Assembly: GCA_016185955.1 (NCBI GenBank)
Contig: JACPMQ010000032.1
Coordinates: 1-35,705, forward strand
DNA from: Candidatus Woesearchaeota archaeon
Lineage (GTDB): Archaea; Nanobdellota; Nanobdellia; Woesearchaeales; GW2011-AR4
Length of the DNA stretch: 35,705 nt
Direction: 5' to 3'
Below are positions 7,070-35,544 of the stretch, piece by piece; the stretch's first letter is position 1; each line of letters opens with the position of its first letter. A program made the position numbers and the translations under genes. The notes beneath the pieces were generated by a model. The model saw nothing but the letters and a program-made list of their open reading frames with translations, had not been told where the DNA came from and did no database searches.

Positions 7070-8175
7070 AAATTTCCTTAAGGCTAAAGCTGCTGCTGTA
7101 TAAATTTTTTTCCGGTAATTTTGGAAAAAAGCTGCTGAAGGCTATTTCCTTTGGCGTTAAAGTTAAAAATTTAGGCTCTAATTTTAATCCCAAGAATGCA
7201 AAAAAAAGGAAATTTTTTGTGGTTATAACAGTTGACACTGAATCTGGCTATGTGAATAGCGATGAAAGAAGAGTATGGCAGAAAGAAAATCCCAACGCGT
7301 TTGTTGGGTATTATTATGGCATTGCAAACTTATTAAAAATTCTTAGCAAGCATAATGCAAAGGCAACATTTTTTCTTTCAACGCAATGTTTTTCAGCCAA
7401 AAGCTTGGAATACGAAAAAATAAGGAATGCGATAATTAATGCCGCAAATAATGGGCATGAAATAGGATTGCACTTGCATCCTGACTCTGATTTTGCAATA
7501 CAAAAAAAATTATTTAAAAAATTTAATGCAACAAGCGCATTTTTTTATAGCTATAAGGAAAAACACGAAATAATAAAATCAGCCAGAGAAATAATAAAAG
7601 AGCATCTTGGAAAGAATGCAGAAAAAAAACTTATAAGCTTCAGGTGGGGCAATTGGGCTTTGGATACGGAAGGGGCAAAAGCGCTGCAAAAGCTTGATTT
7701 TAAGATTGACAGCTCTGCAACTCCGGGAATTAAAGGGCATTTAAATGATGGAATGAAATATGACTGGAGTAAGGTAAAATATCATTACCCATGGAAGCTA
7801 AGCATAACCGATTACAGAGCAATAAATCATAATAATTCTGGCATAATTGAAATGCCAATTGCAACCTTTAGTTTCTTTGGCTTGAATTTAAGGGCTGACC
7901 CATTGTATTCTGTTTTGCTCAAAAAAGCATTTATGGAATATTACCTCAAGGCAGACAGAGCAAAAAAAGCCTTTCCGTTTGTTGTAATAACTCATAGCTC
8001 AGAAGCAACTTATAAAGACGGCAATATTGCGCAAACATTAAAAGATTTGGAAGATTTCATTATTTTTGCAAAAAAATTTGAGGATGTAAGATTTGTTAGC
8101 TTAAGGGAGGCTTATAATCAAAATTTCCGCCAATCTTTAATTGGCGGAAATGCATTAACCGCAACCACAAAATAA
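7066..8175 (+). CDS. polysaccharide deacetylase-like hydrolase (tentative)
   Basis: FVVITVDTESGY and GHEIGLHLHPD pattern is reminiscent of CE4-like deacetylases. ATGA start/stop overlap with the GT4 gene. The last ~19 codons run through a palindromic repeat. Confidence 0.5.
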   Translation: MKISLRLKLLLYKFFSGNFGKKLLKAISFGVKVKNLGSNFNPKNAKKRKFFVVITVDTESGYVNSDERRVWQKENPNAFVGYYYGIANLLKILSKHNAKATFFLSTQCFSAKSLEYEKIRNAIINAANNGHEIGLHLHPDSDFAIQKKLFKKFNATSAFFYSYKEKHEIIKSAREIIKEHLGKNAEKKLISFRWGNWALDTEGAKALQKLDFKIDSSATPGIKGHLNDGMKYDWSKVKYHYPWKLSITDYRAINHNNSGIIEMPIATFSFFGLNLRADPLYSVLLKKAFMEYYLKADRAKKAFPFVVITHSSEATYKDGNIAQTLKDLEDFIIFAKKFEDVRFVSLREAYNQNFRQSLIGGNALTATTK

Positions 8176-11879: not shown

Positions 11880-12899
11880 TTATTCAACAGAAACAGGCTT
11901 CCTTTGTATGCCCGATTCCAACATCAAGAGGGCTATTTCCAATGCTCTTAAGGCTTCCCATGGATTATCCATCAAAGGCTTTTTGTTTTTTCTTACGCAT
12001 TCCATTAAATGCTCAAGCTCAAGTTTCAAAGGCTCTTCTTTTTTGATAGGATACTCTATAATTTTGCCTGAGCTTATGTTTCCAGAAAGAAAAACACTCT
12101 TGTAATAATCCAAGCCATTTGTCATCTGGCCGCTTTCTGAATTTTCATAAAATTTTAAAGTCTGCTCTTGGTAGTTGCCTTCAAGCACGCCCTTTGTGCC
12201 GTAAATATTAATTGTCCTGACTCTCTTTGGAGACACCCAACTGAATTCAGAAGAGCCGTTAATATCGGCTCCAATTTTAAACAGAGACTTGCAATAAATT
12301 GACACTTTCTCAGAAAGTATCAATTGAGAGTATACTTGTTTTATTTCCCCGATAAGGTAACTAATAATATCTATATCATGTATAGCCAAATCTATCAAGA
12401 CACCAACATCTTTTATTCTTTTTGGGTATGGCCCTGCTCTAACGGTATTAACAAGATAAATATCTCCAAGCATGCCTTCATCAATGAATTTTTTTATTTG
12501 CGTCACGACAGGATTAAACCTTTCAATATGCCCTACTACAAGCAATTTTTTATGCTTGTCTGCAGCATCTATCATCTCCTTAGCTTCTGCAACAGTGGCT
12601 GATATTGGCTTTTCGACAAAAACATCTATGCCTTTTTTTATGCAATCTAATGTTATTTGCTTATGCTTGGCTGTCGGCACAGCTATCAAAACAACATCAA
12701 GATTATGCTTGCTTATCATATCCTTATAAGAAATATATTTGTTAGGCACACTGAATGTGTTGGAAACCTTGTCTAAAGTCTCTTTATTGGAATCTGATAT
12801 TGCAACCAGCTTCACATTTTCCATGCCAAGCAGAACTCTTATATGGTTATAGCCCATTACGCCTGCTCCAATGACTCCAACATTTAATGCCCTGCTCAT
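11880..12899 (-). CDS. Gfo/Idh/MocA family NAD-dependent sugar oxidoreductase (WbpB-like)
   Basis: GVIGAGVMG Rossmann motif and FVEKPIS (EKP) motif. Consensus BRE/TATA (rc of 12921-12936) about 27 nt upstream of the ATG. Confidence 0.85.
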   Translation of the reverse strand: MSRALNVGVIGAGVMGYNHIRVLLGMENVKLVAISDSNKETLDKVSNTFSVPNKYISYKDMISKHNLDVVLIAVPTAKHKQITLDCIKKGIDVFVEKPISATVAEAKEMIDAADKHKKLLVVGHIERFNPVVTQIKKFIDEGMLGDIYLVNTVRAGPYPKRIKDVGVLIDLAIHDIDIISYLIGEIKQVYSQLILSEKVSIYCKSLFKIGADINGSSEFSWVSPKRVRTINIYGTKGVLEGNYQEQTLKFYENSESGQMTNGLDYYKSVFLSGNISSGKIIEYPIKKEEPLKLELEHLMECVRKNKKPLMDNPWEALRALEIALLMLESGIQRKPVSVE

Positions 12900-12936: not shown

Positions 12937-12963
12937 TATGGTATCTGCTAACACGCCATAAAA

Positions 12964-13111
12964 GGTTTTTGCGAAAGTCGGTGCTTGTGCGCAATTGCCA
13001 ATTCTGAAAGCTCCGCAGGATTGTGATAAACGACCTGAGCAATGCCGCAGCATTGCGAGGTTGAGAGGAATGTATGGCTCCGCACAAGCACAATTAGATT
13101 TCGCAAAAACC
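12964..13111. repeat. GC-rich palindromic repeat element, copy A (terminal inverted repeats ggtttttgcgaaa..gtgcttgtgcg)
   Basis: Left arm 12964-12991 and right arm 13081-13111 are inverted repeats (13 + 11 perfectly matching nt around a short bulge). The interior contains hairpin gcaatgc-cgca-gcattgc (13039-13056). An outer, weaker inverted repeat pairs 12941-12957 with 13128-13144. Confidence 0.8.
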
Positions 13112-13147
13112 CTGCTTCTCGGACAAAGCCATGTTAGCAGTTACTAT

Positions 13148-13181: not shown

Positions 13182-14090
13182 ATGATGAAAGCTTTTGTCA
13201 CAGGCGGTTCTGGATTTATGGGGCTTTCCCTTGCAAATAAATTGCTTAGCCAAGGGCATAAAGTCAAAATACTGGACTTAAAAGAGCCGGAGATAAAACA
13301 CAAAAACCTTGAGTTTGTCAAAAAATCAGTAGTAAACGAAATAAAAGACGACATTAAAGGTAGCGACATATTATTTCATTTTGCAGCGCTCTTGGGAGTA
13401 GAAAATTCTGATAAAATGCCTTTGGAAACAATGAGAATAAATTTAGAAGGCTCTGTTAATGTGTTTAAATCAGCTATGGAAGCCAATGTTAAGGACATTA
13501 TTTTTTCATCTTCCTCAGAAGTTTATGGAAATCCAAGGGAGCTTCCTATAAAAGAAGATAGCGTTAAAGGTCCCATTTCAACTTACGGAGTTTCAAAGCT
13601 TGCCGCAGAAATTTATGCTAAAGCCTATAATCATGAATGTGGAAGCAGCATAAAGATAGCAAGGTTTTTCAATGTATACGGCCCAAGGCAATCAAATAAT
13701 TTTGTTGTGCCTATATTTATTGATAATGCCCTGCAAAATAAGCCAATTAAGGTTTTTGGCAATGGCTCGCAGACAAGATGCTTTACTTATGTGGATGATG
13801 CAATTGATGGCATCTTTAAAGTAGTTGAAAAAGGAAAAACAGGAGAAGCTTATAATATAGGCAATAATCACCCGACTACTATTTTGCAGCTTGCTGAGAC
13901 AATAAAAGAGCTTGCCAACAGCAAATCAGAGATAATTAAAGTTGATTTCGGCAAGAATACAAGAACAAAGGAAAGAGAAATAGATTACCGCATTCCAGAC
14001 ATATCAAAAATGAATGCTCTTGGTTGGGAGCCAAGAATAAGGATTGTTGAGGGAATAAAAAAAATTCTTGAGTGGAAAAGAAATAATTAA
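13182..14090 (+). CDS. NAD-dependent nucleotide-sugar epimerase/dehydratase (SDR family)
   Basis: VTGGSGFMG, SSSEVYG and YGVSKLAAE (YxxxK). TATA 13155-13163 lies about 23 nt upstream. Confidence 0.88.
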   Translation: MMKAFVTGGSGFMGLSLANKLLSQGHKVKILDLKEPEIKHKNLEFVKKSVVNEIKDDIKGSDILFHFAALLGVENSDKMPLETMRINLEGSVNVFKSAMEANVKDIIFSSSSEVYGNPRELPIKEDSVKGPISTYGVSKLAAEIYAKAYNHECGSSIKIARFFNVYGPRQSNNFVVPIFIDNALQNKPIKVFGNGSQTRCFTYVDDAIDGIFKVVEKGKTGEAYNIGNNHPTTILQLAETIKELANSKSEIIKVDFGKNTRTKEREIDYRIPDISKMNALGWEPRIRIVEGIKKILEWKRNN

Positions 14091-15446: not shown

Positions 15447-15470
15447 TAAGCCAAAGCGGTGGCGAATGCC
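15447..15470. repeat. solo copy of taagccaaagcggtggcg(a/t)atgcc repeat
   Basis: 24 nt identical to 28928-28951 except for one position. There is no local inverted partner for the ccaaagcgg part. Confidence 0.7.
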
Positions 15471-15614
15471 GCCTTTTGCCGGCATCATCAAGCTACATAA
15501 TAACAAAGTTCAGAGGGTTGGCTACGACGGAGCATGACCGATACTGCACTATAATCAAAAATGGCTACTCGCCACTTATCAGTTTATTTGACAAATTCAA
15601 CACCTTCCATGCCT

Positions 15615-21768: not shown

Positions 21769-22851
21769 ATGAAAATTATACACCAAGATTTTAAAAAAGG
21801 CGAAGTTAAGGTAAAAGTTGACAATCTCGATGATTTGTGGTATTTAAGCAGCATAGTGGAAAAAAATGATTTTATCAAAGGCAAAACCCTAAGAAAAATA
21901 AAGTTTGGGGATGAAACCCAAAGAAACCAAAAATCAGTAAAAAAGGCGCTTTTTCTTCTTATTCAGGCAGAAAGGGTTGAATTCAGCAAATTTTCAAACG
22001 AGCTTAGGATATCTGGAATAGTGAAACAAGGAACAGAAGATGTGCCTTTAGGCTCTTACCACACTTTTAATGTCGAAGAAAACTCAGTTATCACGATAAT
22101 CAAGCAAAAATGGCTTAAATTCCAATTAGACAAATTAAAGGACGCCAGCAGTAAAGCAGATTCAAAAATTTTAATCTGCGTGCATGACAGGGAAGAGGCA
22201 TATTTTGCGCTGATTAAAAAATATGGCTACGAGCTTCTTTCGCATATCAAAGGCAATGTGGCAAAAAAGGCAGATATTAAAAAATTTGAAGCCACTTTTT
22301 ACAGAGATGCAGCAAAACAATTAAAAGAGTACAATTCAAGATATAAGCTAAACAAAATCATAATTGCAAGCCCGGCATTTTGGAAAGAAGAGCTGCTTAA
22401 AGAAATAGATGAAGAAATAAAAAATAAAATAATAATTGCAACGTGCTCTTCAGTGACTGAAAATGCCATTAATGAAGTGCTCAAAAGGCCAGAGACAGAA
22501 AAAGCATTAAAGCAGGACAGGATTGCAAAAGAATACAGGCATGTTGAAAGGCTTTTTGTAGAAATATCCAAGAATAATCTTGCTTGTTATGGATTGGAAG
22601 AAACAAAAAATGCAGCCATGTCAGGAGCTGTAAGCTTATTGCTGATAACTGATAATTTTATACAGAAAAAAAGAATTGAGAATCAATATAGCCCAATAGA
22701 GGAAATAATGAAAGCTGTTGATAACTCTAATGGAGATATAGCAATAATAAGTTCAGAGCATGAGGCAGGGAAAAAATTAGATGGCTTAGGAGGAATTGCA
22801 GCTATATTGAGGTTCAAGTTTAATACAACCTACAAATTTTCTGCCAATTGA
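21769..22851 (+). CDS. pelA: Pelota (aRF1-related mRNA surveillance factor)
   Basis: MKII...GEVKVKVDNLDDLWYLSSIV N-terminal domain and length typical of archaeal Pelota. TATA-like box about 30 nt upstream. Confidence 0.9.
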   Translation: MKIIHQDFKKGEVKVKVDNLDDLWYLSSIVEKNDFIKGKTLRKIKFGDETQRNQKSVKKALFLLIQAERVEFSKFSNELRISGIVKQGTEDVPLGSYHTFNVEENSVITIIKQKWLKFQLDKLKDASSKADSKILICVHDREEAYFALIKKYGYELLSHIKGNVAKKADIKKFEATFYRDAAKQLKEYNSRYKLNKIIIASPAFWKEELLKEIDEEIKNKIIIATCSSVTENAINEVLKRPETEKALKQDRIAKEYRHVERLFVEISKNNLACYGLEETKNAAMSGAVSLLLITDNFIQKKRIENQYSPIEEIMKAVDNSNGDIAIISSEHEAGKKLDGLGGIAAILRFKFNTTYKFSAN

Positions 22852-22916
22852 TGATTGCAGAAAATTTGTAGTTTTACTACCACAAATTATATATAACTAT
22901 TGCTTAATTTGAGCTT

Positions 22917-24233: not shown

Positions 24234-24323
24234 TAAACATCACCTTTATTACTTCTAAATGATTTAAAAGGCACAAGTATTTAAAATCTTCGATTTTTAG
24301 AATGTTTTTTACTGGTATCTAAA

Positions 24324-24983: not shown

Positions 24984-25062
24984 AAATCCTTAACAAATAT
25001 AAGTGGCTGCTCCAAAATAAGGGGCGGTAGGCAAGCAGAAGAATGTTAATTGTGCTATCAAA

Positions 25063-25209
25063 ATGGCGCGTATGTGCAAAAATAATTTTGTTATATAGGC
25101 ACGGACATTAATTTCCGTAAATAAATTATCCGTGCCTATATACTGCGGACTTTGACAATTATTACGGAAATCAAAGTCCGCTCGTATAGTAAGAAGAAAG
25201 ATGCGCCAT
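25063..25209 (+). ncRNA. candidate structured RNA/leader: closing stem plus two perfect hairpins with complementary loops
   Basis: P1 is atggcgcgt (25063-25071) paired with atgcgccat (25201-25209). Hairpin 1 has a 13-bp stem, 25093-25105 / 25129-25141. Hairpin 2 has an 11-bp stem, 25145-25155 / 25171-25181. Loop 1 tttccgtaa (25112-25120) is complementary to loop 2 ttacggaaa (25162-25170). Strand and transcription are not established. Confidence 0.35.
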
Positions 25210-25232
25210 AAGATGCCTATAAAATAAGCATT

Positions 25233-26003: not shown

Positions 26004-26033
26004 TTCCACTGTTCATAGAACGGCGGAATTTTT
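26004..26033 (+). terminator. hairpin plus T-run downstream of the M50-like gene
   Basis: ttccactgttc-ata-gaacggcggaa followed by ttttt, starting 10 nt after the stop at 25994. One mismatch and one G-U in the stem. Confidence 0.5.
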
Positions 26034-26050
26034 AAAAGACAAAAATAAAA

Positions 26051-26383: not shown

Positions 26384-26386
26384 TAC

Positions 26387-26421
26387 AAAAATTCCGCCAA
26401 TCCAAGGTTGGTGGAATTTTT
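26387..26421. terminator. A-run/hairpin/T-run palindrome (bidirectional terminator-like)
   Basis: aaaaattccgccaa-tccaagg-ttggtggaattttt, 4 nt after the stop of 26051-26383. Confidence 0.55.
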
Positions 26422-26424
26422 GAT

Positions 26425-26626
26425 TACATTCCTCTCAACCTCGCAATGCTGCGGCATTGCTCGGGTCATTTATCACACTCCTTTGGAGATTTCTGAATTG
26501 GCAAATTTCAGCGGAGAACACAAATAATTTATTGAAGTAGTTTGTGTTCTCTAGCATAGTGGCGCAATAATTATTGTTCCATTATTTAGTTGCGCCACTA
26601 TACGCACAAGCACTGAATTTCGCACC
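26425..26626. repeat. palindromic repeat element, copy B (inverted orientation relative to copy A, with ~95-nt insertion)
   Basis: The reverse complement of 26425-26500 aligns with 12992-13076, including a 38-nt identical core (gagcaatgccgcagcattgcgaggttgagaggaatgta). 26601-26624 matches the left arm of copy A. 26511-26600 is extra sequence made of two hairpins (26514-26551 and 26557-26600). Confidence 0.8.
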
Positions 26627-26640
26627 GACCCCATTTTACA

Positions 26641-26676: not shown

Positions 26677-28896
26677 ATGGTCAATATCAAAAACTTTACG
26701 CCAAGGCTTTATCAGGAAACTATAATGGCTACATGTGTAAAGAGCAATTGTTTAGTTATACTTCCAACTGGTTTGGGAAAAACAAAAACAGCAATACTCG
26801 CATCTGCCCAAAGATTAAATTCTTATCCCAACTCAAAAATACTTTTTTTGACAGTAACAAAGCCGCTTGCAGAGCAAATATACAGTGAGATCAAGGACTG
26901 CCTTGATTTAGAAGAAAATAAAATAACGCTTTTTACTGGTGCTGTTGCGCCGGAAAAAAGGCAGGAATTATGGAAAAATTCTGTTGTGACAGTAAGCACT
27001 CCTCAATGCATAGAAAATGATTTCATTAATGGAAGGGCTGATTTGGAAAATGTTTCTTTGCTTGTAGCAGATGAAGCTCATAATGCGGTAAAAGATTACT
27101 CGTACACATGGGTTGCAAAGCAATATCATAAGAAATCAAGATTTCCAAGAATCATAGGGCTTACAGCATCTCCAGGCTCTGATATTGAGAGAATACAGGA
27201 AGTATGCAAAAACCTGTATATAGAGGAAATTGAGATAAGAACAGACAAGGATCCGGATGTAAAGCCTTACATATATGACATTAAGGTTGAATGGGTTGAA
27301 GTTCATCTGCCCCAGATATTTTTAGACGCAAGAAAATATTTGCAGGACTTCTTAAATGAGAAGCTTGAAAAATTAAAGAAATGGGGCATTTTAAAAAGGG
27401 CAGACTTGAGGTTTGTAAATAAAACTGACTTGCTTAACCTGCAAGCGCAATTGAGGGGAAGAGTCTCCACAGGAGAAAAGGATTTTGTAGTATGGAATGC
27501 AATTTCTGTATTAGCTGAAATAATGAAAGTCAGCCATGCCCTTGAGCTGCTTGAAACACAGGGAGTTATATCCTTATTTAATTATATGGAGAAACTAAAC
27601 AGAGAAGCGCATTCTACAAAGGTAAAGGCAGTCAAGAATGTTGTTAATGACCTAAATTTCCGCTCTGCATTAGTTAAGGTATCCAAGCTGTATGAAGAGA
27701 AAATAGAGCATCCAAAGCTTATAGAGCTGCAAAAAATTGTTGAAAAAGAAATGAAGGAAGCAAATAAGAAAATAATAGTTTTTAACCAATACAGGGATAA
27801 CGCCTCTGATATAAAGGAAAAGCTGAATAAGCTCCATGGAGTTAAAGCGCAATTGTTTGTCGGGCAGCTTAAGAAAAATGACACGGGCTTAAGCCAGAAA
27901 GAGCAAAAAAAAGTTCTTGACGACTTTAAGGGAGGAATATTTAATGTGCTGGTTGCGACATCAATAGCAGAGCAAGGCTTGGATATTCCGGAAGTTGACA
28001 CTGTCATTTTTTATGAGCCAATACCCTCTGCAATAAGGCAGATACAAAGAAGAGGAAGAACCGGCAGGCATGGAGAAGGAAAAGCCATTGTCCTGCTTAC
28101 CAAAGGAACAATGGACGAGGGCTTCAGATGGGCAGCGCACCACAAAGAAAAAAGAATGTACAGGAACCTTGAAAATTTAAAAAGGAAGCTTGCCTTTGTT
28201 GTAAGCGCAAAGCAAGAAAAGATTGCAAATTATAATAATGAAAGCAAAGTAAAGGTTTTTGCCGATTACAGGGAAAAAGGCTCTGCAGCCATAAAAGAGC
28301 TTATCGAGATGGAAGTTGAGCTAAAGCTTGATACGCTGCCAAATGCGGATTATATCTTGAGCTCAAGAGTCGGAGTTGAGCTGAAAACAGTTGAAGATTT
28401 TGTGCAAAGCATCATTGACGGCAGATTATTGGAGCAGATAAGGAACCTTAAAAATAATTTTGAGAAGCCCCTGCTTATAATAGAGGGCATAGAAGACATA
28501 TATTCTGTGAGAAATGTGCATGCAAATGCAATTAGGGGCATGTTGGCTGCGATAACTGTCGGCTATGGCGTTCCGATTTTATACACAAAAAATTTTAGGG
28601 ACACAGCAACCCTTATAAAGATTATAGCAAAAAGGGAGCAAGAGGAAACAAGCAAAGATTTTTTACTGCATCCGCAAAAAAAAGCGTTAAGCCTTAACGA
28701 GCAGCAGGAATATATAATAAGCTCGCTGCCTGGCATTGGAGCTGCACTGTCTAAGCCGCTGCTGAAGCAATTTAAAAGCGTCAAGAATGTAATAAATGCC
28801 GAGCGCAAAGAGCTTGAAAATGTCGAGGGCATAGGCAAAAAAACAGCAAAAAAAATAAAAGATGTTGTTGAGAGGCAGTACCAGACATTAGAGTGA
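26677..28896 (+). CDS. hef: Hef/XPF-family helicase-nuclease (SF2 helicase + ERCC4 nuclease + (HhH)2)
   Basis: Helicase motifs PTGLGKT, DEAH, TASPG and QRRGRTGR. ERCC4 region ADYRE...ADYILSS..VELK..EDF..IIDGRL. C-terminal LPGIGAALS and VEGIGKKTA hairpins. Consensus BRE/TATA at 26641-26655 gives a leaderless ATG. Confidence 0.9.
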   Translation: MVNIKNFTPRLYQETIMATCVKSNCLVILPTGLGKTKTAILASAQRLNSYPNSKILFLTVTKPLAEQIYSEIKDCLDLEENKITLFTGAVAPEKRQELWKNSVVTVSTPQCIENDFINGRADLENVSLLVADEAHNAVKDYSYTWVAKQYHKKSRFPRIIGLTASPGSDIERIQEVCKNLYIEEIEIRTDKDPDVKPYIYDIKVEWVEVHLPQIFLDARKYLQDFLNEKLEKLKKWGILKRADLRFVNKTDLLNLQAQLRGRVSTGEKDFVVWNAISVLAEIMKVSHALELLETQGVISLFNYMEKLNREAHSTKVKAVKNVVNDLNFRSALVKVSKLYEEKIEHPKLIELQKIVEKEMKEANKKIIVFNQYRDNASDIKEKLNKLHGVKAQLFVGQLKKNDTGLSQKEQKKVLDDFKGGIFNVLVATSIAEQGLDIPEVDTVIFYEPIPSAIRQIQRRGRTGRHGEGKAIVLLTKGTMDEGFRWAAHHKEKRMYRNLENLKRKLAFVVSAKQEKIANYNNESKVKVFADYREKGSAAIKELIEMEVELKLDTLPNADYILSSRVGVELKTVEDFVQSIIDGRLLEQIRNLKNNFEKPLLIIEGIEDIYSVRNVHANAIRGMLAAITVGYGVPILYTKNFRDTATLIKIIAKREQEETSKDFLLHPQKKALSLNEQQEYIISSLPGIGAALSKPLLKQFKSVKNVINAERKELENVEGIGKKTAKKIKDVVERQYQTLE

Positions 28897-28900
28897 AATA

Positions 28901-29043
28901 ATCAGTACCTATGCAGGTAAATCAAATTAAGCCAAAGCGGTGGCGTATGCCTCCGAAAATTCCGCTGTTCGCAACAGCGGAATTTTTACGAGCCACCGCT
29001 TTGGTTTTTGTATCAAAAAAAAGGTGCTTACATAGATACTGAT
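28901..29043. repeat. triple-nested palindrome (contains ccaaagcggtggc repeat family)
   Basis: Outer inverted repeat 28901-28913 / 29031-29043 (12 of 13). Middle 28932-28944 / 28992-29004 (13 of 13). Inner 28956-28969 / 28973-28986 (14 of 14). Confidence 0.8.
28956..28986. terminator. A-run/hairpin/T-run palindrome (innermost part of the nested palindrome)
   Basis: aaaattccgctgtt-cgc-aacagcggaatttt, a perfect 14-bp stem 60 nt after the Hef stop. Confidence 0.5.
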
Positions 29044-35469: not shown

Positions 35470-35506
35470 ATAAAATAGCAAGTGTCAAAAAACCAAAGTC
35501 GGAGGT

Positions 35507-35541
35507 AAAAATTCCAGCGTTCAGAGAACGCTGGAATTTTT
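35507..35541. promoter_or_regulatory. perfect 16-bp A-run/hairpin/T-run palindrome in the L23-L2 spacer
   Basis: aaaaattccagcgttc-aga-gaacgctggaattttt. GGAGGT (35501-35506) lies immediately 5' of it and the L2 ATG lies 3 nt 3' of it. Confidence 0.6.
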
Positions 35542-35544
35542 AAA

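Follow-up and report, generated by a model that had tools for sequence, protein, structure and literature searches.

The window analysed here, a stretch of 35,705 nucleotides from a Candidatus Woesearchaeota archaeon, raises the question of why two intergenic copies of a diverged repeat, lying in opposite orientation, should share 38 identical nucleotides. A preliminary description of the locus had regarded this segment as being under selection, as an RNA or as a protein-binding site, within palindromic elements that insert into each other. The surrounding DNA is core chromosome, with fibrillarin, Nop5, aRF1, primase, L3/L4/L23 and a glycosylation cluster. We propose that the element is probably a MITE (miniature inverted-repeat transposable element) of marine Woesearchaeota MAGs, of which the window holds a dead copy.

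The window contains exactly two occurrences of the 38-mer, GAGCAATGCCGCAGCATTGCGAGGTTGAGAGGAATGTA, at 13037-13074 (+) and 26425-26462 (-), where none is expected by chance. The inverted homology around it covers 80 nt at 91% identity (12995-13074 against the reverse complement of 26425-26504), every mismatch lying to the left of the 38-mer. The exact identity of the 38 nt and the opposite orientation of two homologous copies, both pointed out in the preliminary description, are thereby confirmed. The same is true of the small stem said to change while keeping its pairing, which is CTCCGCAGGAT in copy A and CTCCAAAGGAG in copy B. That the two are copies of one repeat element with terminal inverted repeats is likewise supported, by the alignment and by the homologs of the family described below. 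The features on which the argument draws are the following.

12962-13113, plus strand: copy A, a full-length diverged MITE of 152 bp (nhmmer E=5e-45; covariance model 136 bits, model positions 1-145).
12964-12991, plus strand: left terminal inverted repeat of copy A, GGTTTTTGCGAAAGTCGGTGCTTGTGCG, which pairs with 13081-13111 and has its homolog in the left repeat of the relatives.
13037-13074, plus strand: the 38-mer in copy A, which holds the inner-hairpin extension GCAATGC-CGCA-GCATTGC (GC-GAA-GC or GC-AAA-GC in relatives).
13081-13111, plus strand: right terminal inverted repeat of copy A, CGCACAAGCAC-AATTAGA-TTTCGCAAAAACC, recognised by pairing and homology.
26386-26422, no strand assigned: palindrome A5-TTCCGCC...GGTGGAA-T5, directly after the stop codon of a 110-aa gene and abutting the far end of copy B.
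26425-26507, minus strand: core fragment of copy B, including the 38-mer at 26425-26462 (nhmmer E=2e-12; covariance model 19.1 bits, E~0.09; model ~40-105).
26508-26601, no strand assigned: two-hairpin module of 94 nt inserted in copy B, with element sequence continuous on both sides.
26514-26551, no strand assigned: hairpin 1, with a perfect stem 26514-26524/26541-26551.
26556-26601, no strand assigned: hairpin 2, with a perfect stem 26556-26567/26590-26601.
26602-26632, minus strand: left terminal inverted repeat of copy B, GGGGTCGGTGCGAAATTCAGTGCTTGTGCGT in minus-strand reading (blastn-short, 92% over 26 nt to the left repeat of the relatives).

The nature of the repeat became apparent from its relatives. 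After exact scans with 20-23-nt parts of the 38-mer had given nothing, more copies were sought via Hef-orthologous loci, two of which (L002 and L006) contained the first full-length relatives of copy A; a degenerate pattern fitting all four copies then known gave five archaeal matches in GTDB genomes. The distinct full-length copies are copy A of the window, L002 (the same as L058 and L064), L006 (the same as L067), L063, L065 and L066. The element measures 145 bp in the relatives and is non-coding; at 145-152 bp it is too short to encode a transposase. All copies are intergenic, and no ATG-started ORF of at least 70 aa overlaps any of them. The ends of the 145-bp element were set at GAGGTTGG...CCAACCTC, its terminus pattern being GAGGTTGGTG.GAAAGTC. 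The termini, GAGGTTGGTGCGAAAGTCGGTGCTTGTGCG ... CGCACAAGCACGAATTAGATTTTCGCACCAACCTC, form inverted repeats of ~28-30 bp, built of a 15-bp and an 11-bp paired segment with an asymmetric loop of 4/7-9 nt between them; in an alignment of six copies, 96-97% of the cells in these repeats are paired. Identity is 90-96% among the relatives and 71-74% between them and copy A. Derived characters common to copies A and B, chiefly the inner mini-hairpin extension, place the two in a lineage-specific subfamily. The targets are AT-rich intergenic spacers, and the GC content of the element is ~0.48 against 0.35 in the host genome. One MAG, CAYXZV01, carries at least three copies, spread over three contigs, and the window carries two; the one to three copies seen per genome are low for a MITE and come from genomes scanned by exact pattern only. 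Searches with nhmmer and the covariance model over ~700 kb of related loci revealed no further diverged copies. A link to the Hef neighbourhood was considered and abandoned, as the other copies lie elsewhere; the association largely reflects ascertainment, Hef having served to retrieve the loci. A 24-nt exact match to the left terminus in a viral sequence (L068 340-363, IMGVR_UViG_3300012667_000647) was judged a coincidence: it falls inside a viral gene, in a low-complexity Ala/Pro tail (...AQAPTFAPA...), with the rest of the element absent.

Two observations on these records concern their annotation. The contigs L063, L065 and L067 (CAYXZV01) and L066 (CAZTBE01) are titled 'uncultured Methanosarcinales archaeon', a label that looks doubtful: at the element and, close by, at the two-hairpin module, the profile and model scores of L067 equal those of the Woesearchaeota-type Tara contig L006. 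In addition, a TraB-family ORF is called at 290-291 aa in L002 (6727-7602) and L058 (2821-3693) and at 229 aa in element-free genomes, an annotation artefact of a reading frame that continues across the MITE.

The evidence for transposition comes from the relatives, where five of five independent insertions are flanked by target-site duplications of ~9 bp, read in fixed register directly outside the 145-bp element.

L063: left GCTTTATCT, right GCTTTATCT, 9/9.
L065: left GGATTGAAA, right GAATTGAAA, 8/9.
L066: left TATTTACCC, right TATTTACCA, 8/9.
L006: left (T)GGTTTAAA, right (A)GGTCTAAA, 7/9.
L002: left GATTTTTT(T)G, right GATTTTTTG, 7/9, the two sides differing by one T in a T-run.

Agreement of at least 8/9 in fixed register is found at a fraction of 3.9e-4 of 118,448 control positions. 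The duplications are matched by empty sites. At the position of the L006 insertion, where the element is accompanied by two copies of TTTAAACC, just one is present in L054, L057 and L002; when filled and empty sites are aligned, a clean gap remains that comprises the element plus one repeat. The insertion in L002 is likewise filled against empty orthologous sites in L054, L057 and the window. Within the conserved gene block [90aa-][TraB+][251aa+][110aa+][Hef+], the element occupies three different spacers and orientations (in L002, in L006 and in the window), and it is absent from the same block in L054, L055 and L057. [quoted passage not shown] As a non-autonomous class II element, a MITE is expected to measure 50-800 bp and to encode no transposase, to end in inverted repeats of at least 10-15 bp and to be flanked by duplications of 2-10 bp. 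Between L002 and L006, the third-codon positions of Hef are 57% identical and the element copies 91%. With copies at 90-96% in the family, the insertions must be much younger than the split of the host species, which implies recent activity of the family and probably its horizontal spread between species.

It can be hypothesised that an autonomous IS provides a DDE-type transposase in trans, which would bind both terminal repeats and cut the target with a stagger of 9 bp, leaving the ~9-bp duplication. No transposase was found in the window, and ~700 kb of related loci yielded neither an autonomous IS with the same termini nor any such termini standing solo or flanking an IS. Searches of plasmid, phage and viral collections for the element or its termini (by blastn for plasmids and phages) returned nothing meaningful. 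Related autonomous IS are often missing for accepted MITE families. One woesearchaeal genome is among the most MITE-dense archaeal genomes surveyed (PMC11602168).

Against this background, copy A is a structurally complete, diverged member of the family. It sits between divergent glycosylation-type genes, a GFO/IDH/MocA oxidoreductase (11880-12899, minus strand) and an NAD-dependent epimerase (13182-14090, plus strand), and no flanking direct repeat or target-site duplication was seen at it. This is expected of an old insertion, as the direct repeats of MITEs, which prefer AT-rich intergenic DNA, wane with time (PMC10969869). With no duplication at copy A and one end of copy B lost, the membership of the window copies in the family is read from sequence homology alone.

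Copy B lies between the 110-aa gene and the gene for a helicase-ERCC4-HhH protein of the archaeal Hef type (26677-28896), whose nearest relatives are ~80% identical. It keeps a single terminal repeat, as the preliminary description had it; this repeat extends to 26602-26632 on the minus strand, covers nhmmer model positions 8-40 and stops ~10 nt short of the Hef TATA box. The right terminal repeat, which would follow the core fragment, is missing. Its expected place is occupied by the palindrome at 26386-26422, the hairpin that had been seen to adjoin this end of the copy and that we regard as a terminator-like hairpin outside the MITE. As one of its ends is lost, copy B is immobile. Its substitutions, moreover, break predicted inner pairs. 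Copy B is a dead, truncated and nested MITE copy, which makes it a genomic parasite of an ordinary sort and not a novel RNA or regulatory site.

Palindromes of the form A4-5-TTCCGC...GCGGAA-T4-5 stand directly after stop codons at six places in the window (8119-8151, 22827-22874, 26004-26037, 26386-26422, 28956-28986 and 35506-35542) and give T-runs on both strands. The string AAAATTCCRC, with at most one mismatch, occurs 24 times in the window against an expected 11.6 +/- 3.7. These palindromes are probably bidirectional terminator hairpins; alternatively, their common TTCCGC core could represent a repeat family or a binding site.

The ~95 extra nucleotides that had been noticed in copy B are indeed made of two hairpins, both perfect, and their insertion is exact, at 94 nt (26508-26601). 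The junction reads GTGCGT, insert, AATTTGCC in copy B and is an uninterrupted GTGCGTAATTTGCC in relatives, with neither loss nor duplication, and this exactness argues that the module was inserted into the MITE. Hairpin 1, hairpin 2 and a hairpin of L006 (9868-9925) are related, having common flanks and loops and different, fully paired stems. The whole module is homologous to L006 9871-9966 (the same as L067 2315-2408), which occupies the same 110aa/Hef spacer but has no MITE sequence beside it; in L002 and L054 this spacer is only ~40 nt long. No further copies of the module were detected in ~670 kb, and no obvious target duplication accompanies it. It may be a mobile piece that chose one spacer twice or an ancestral feature of the spacer; if the module is mobile, its homolog in the orthologous spacer is an unexplained coincidence. 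The proposition that palindromes here insert into each other holds in so far as the nested insertion is exact and nested palindromes exist elsewhere in the window. Its second half, that one segment is under selection, does not hold, for the reasons that follow.

The contrast that drew attention to the 38-mer is real but weak. Copy B has no change relative to copy A inside it and ~15% elsewhere. When the 15 mismatches over 113 aligned nt are permuted, a clean run of at least 38 nt arises with P=0.02, or P=0.05 for the core alone, so that the run is marginally non-random and chance alone is a weak explanation for it. Relatives used as outgroup place seven of the eight core differences in copy B as derived. 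When six full-length copies drawn from four genomes are compared, the one large indel of the family, GC-GAA-GC in relatives against GCAATGC-CGCA-GCATTGC in the window copies, falls in the 38-mer region, along with several substitutions. Conservation across species is seen in the blocks TTGCCAATTC, AGCTCCGCAGGATTGT and CGACCTGAGC, which all lie outside the 38-mer, and copy B is mutated in two of the three (AGCTCCGCAGGATTGT and CGACCTGAGC). The region is therefore not the conserved part of the family, and copy B, which is without the 3' strand of the terminal stems, reaches only 19 bits with the covariance model. The 38-nt identity is best explained by DNA history, which we infer to have been short-tract gene conversion from copy A or an A-like copy, a chimeric origin of copy B, or uneven chance decay. 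Selection on the 38-mer would be less likely than recent DNA exchange or chance.

The alternative that fares best is that the element is mainly a structured small-RNA gene, mobile or domesticated, with a rod-like fold of ~145 nt and a long terminal stem under selection as RNA, and copy B as an exapted fragment in which the 38-mer is selected. We consider it unlikely. In its favour, the predicted RNA of copy A has a strong, well-defined fold, with a folding energy of -66 kcal/mol on the plus strand (z=-6.6, MFE frequency 0.31) and of -58.7 on the minus strand. Across six copies, 95.6% of cells pair, and five stem pairs are changed on both sides, as compensation would have it, a number equalled by none of 500 shuffles. 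A clear example is copy A itself, where AA replaces the CC of the relatives in the right repeat and a matching TT replaces GG in the left (pairs 7/150 and 8/149). One-sided changes on the plus strand are mostly G.U (four, against one A.C), and the GC content of copy A, 0.48-0.50 in a genome of 0.35, makes it the most GC-rich 150-nt stretch of the window (window GC 0.351). A TATA-like box ~25 nt upstream of the 5' end accompanies all copies, and the unchanged 38-mer of copy B could be counted on the same side. However, all five covarying pairs lie in the terminal repeats, while the 19 inner pairs are invariant or show mismatches only, so that the inner helices lend the fold no support. The 4:1 wobble bias is not significant. 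The lack of the 3' strands of both P1 and P2 in copy B and the substitutions in its predicted inner pairs speak against a retained RNA, as does the location of the 38-mer in the part of the family that is least conserved in length. Target-site duplications and empty sites, finally, are typical of selfish DNA.

The search for an RNA identity gave no indication either. No Rfam 15 family matched at gathering thresholds anywhere in the window, with only noise up to E=10 in the two intergenic regions, and ARAGORN predicted no tRNA or tmRNA. Prompted by the long terminal stem and the GAAAGTC motif, several RNA classes were considered by eye, namely 5S rRNA, SRP RNA, RNase P RNA, C/D-box and H/ACA guides, K-turn and hammerhead; their motifs are not conserved among the copies and Rfam gave no signal for them. 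An independent RNA gene with its own promoter was also rejected, since the TATA-like boxes stand at similar distance on both sides of the element and so define neither a promoter nor a strand, and since insertions of the element proved to be flanked by target-site duplications.

The paired changes themselves (n=5) are not predicted by plain neutral decay of dead copies. Within the MITE interpretation, they would most simply be explained by template switching between the imperfect arms of the inverted repeat, a process that homogenises and expands such arms (PMC8604942, PMC13100816); selection on a folded transcript is the less likely alternative. The perfect stems of the nested hairpins would be accounted for by template switching as well, and so would the hairpin extension seen in the window copies. 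Only the concerted terminal-repeat changes and the GC richness could hint at more than selfish DNA. It is conceivable, if slightly less probable still than the small-RNA gene as such, that they are the mark of a mobile structured-RNA gene of DPANN archaea: a GC-rich rod with a long, compensated terminal stem and G.U-biased intermediates on one strand, which spreads by transposition and horizontally between Woesearchaeota species, and fragments of which, such as the 38-mer, are exapted near host promoters.

Far less plausible than either is the idea that the 38-mer or its hairpin acts as an operator or terminator for the flanking genes, which would be the glycosylation genes at copy A and the 110-aa gene and Hef at copy B. 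The 38 identical nt beside diverged sequence, the perfect 7-bp hairpin that they contain and the intergenic position of both copies near promoters would suit such a role, but the statistics are marginal (P 0.02-0.05), and orientation and distance to the neighbouring genes differ between the copies. The orthologous spacers in relatives are entirely devoid of the 38-mer, the ~40-nt spacers of L002 and L054 included, and exact 20-23-mers drawn from it found no further copy in GTDB representative genomes, JGI metagenomes or IMG/VR. The least probable explanation, a plain local or segmental duplication of intergenic DNA in this genome without transposition, would account for the two copies in the window and the missing duplication at both, but is contradicted by the relatives, which carry elements with terminal inverted repeats, 9-bp duplications and empty sites at unrelated loci.

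Other features of the window are recorded here as separate observations. Downstream of Hef, at 28928-29005, a 13-bp stem (CCAAAGCGGTGGC / GCCACCGCTTTGG) encloses a AAAATTCCGC hairpin; its left arm with flank, TAAGCCAAAGCGGTGGCG.ATGCC, recurs at 93% in another spacer (15447-15473), forming a small nested repeat. The spacer between TraB and the 251-aa gene (24984-25232) is ~250 nt long, against ~60-70 nt in relatives. It contains a perfect 14-bp hairpin (25092-25105 / 25129-25142, TATATAGGCACGGA...TCCGTGCCTATATA) and a second inverted repeat, GGACTTTGA...TCAAAGTCC, and its excess may be inserted palindromic DNA. In the spacer between the 90-aa gene and TraB, a promoter-like GCAAGTATTTAAAATCTTCGATTTT is conserved (L054 8030-8075, L057 6420-6470, L002 6695-6722, window 24268-24300). 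In L054 and L057 it is followed, before the TraB TATA box, by a segment of ~40 nt with a GCTAA-TTAT-TTAGC hairpin and a T-run, which could be a short non-coding transcript. Lastly, a single ORF of 446 aa at 31872-33212 matches the families of both the large (PF04104) and the small (PF01896) primase subunit, which suggests a fused PriS-PriL primase.

The stretch singled out at the outset can be described as a decayed, nested transposon fossil, and neither as a conserved RNA nor as an operator. The broader interest lies in the family to which it belongs. In the literature searched, the mobile elements of these tiny-genome DPANN archaea appear only in a bulk survey; here a specific MITE family is documented in marine Woesearchaeota with proof from insertion sites. 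Between species whose synonymous sites are saturated, its copies are 90-96% identical. Its probable horizontal spread is of some interest in organisms that are thought to depend on cell-cell contact with hosts. There is also a practical consequence, since gene callers run ORFs through the element, as in the TraB proteins of 290 aa instead of 229 aa.

The element resembles known prokaryotic MITEs, among them the archaeal MITEs of Sulfolobus and Halobacterium and QMITE2 of Coxiella burnetii, which has direct repeats of 7-9 bp, terminal inverted repeats of 23-29 bp and a core of 113-145 bp (PMC10969869). The shared traits are a small, non-coding, multi-copy element in intergenic, AT-rich targets, terminal inverted repeats of ~28-30 bp, a duplication of ~9 bp, a very stable predicted stem-loop and the loss of direct repeats in old copies. 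MITEs are usually described as AT-rich. The present element, in contrast, is GC-rich relative to its host, was seen in low copy number and shows paired changes in its terminal repeats between copies. No cognate IS came to light in ~700 kb of related DNA. Its host also differs from those of the MITEs cited in being a DPANN archaeon. Described MITE families of DPANN were not encountered in the literature searched, which offers only a bulk computational survey (PMC11602168).

As to the origin of the termini, the first 12 nt after the outer GA, GGTTGGTGCGAA, agree with GGAAGGTGCGAA of the IS5 family at 10 of 12 positions (11 of 18 overall; shuffle P=0.02), where the IS5 terminus, GGAAGGTGCGAA(T/C)AAG, was read from an annotated IS5-like copy of E. 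coli. The likeness is limited to these ~12 nt, and no IS5-type transposase lies near any copy. IS5 proper makes 4-bp duplications, which the 9-bp duplication of the element does not fit. Duplications of 9 bp are made by the IS903 subgroup of the IS5 family. An IS5-family origin may be taken as a lead and not as an assignment. Correia elements of Neisseria, and nested or composite bacterial MITEs in general, are similar in their short terminal inverted repeats, hairpin folds, position next to promoters and rearranged or nested state. Correia elements have documented effects on promoters and through RNase III; they are unrelated to the present element in sequence and differ in their duplication, which is TA. 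With REP/BIME sequences and the PATEs derived from IS200/IS605, the element has in common that they are intergenic palindromic repeats, the likeness behind the earlier wording of palindromic elements inserting into each other. The main element is set apart from those families, whose hairpins are subterminal, by long terminal inverted repeats and 9-bp duplications, both absent from them; the comparison may apply instead to the 94-nt module nested within copy B.
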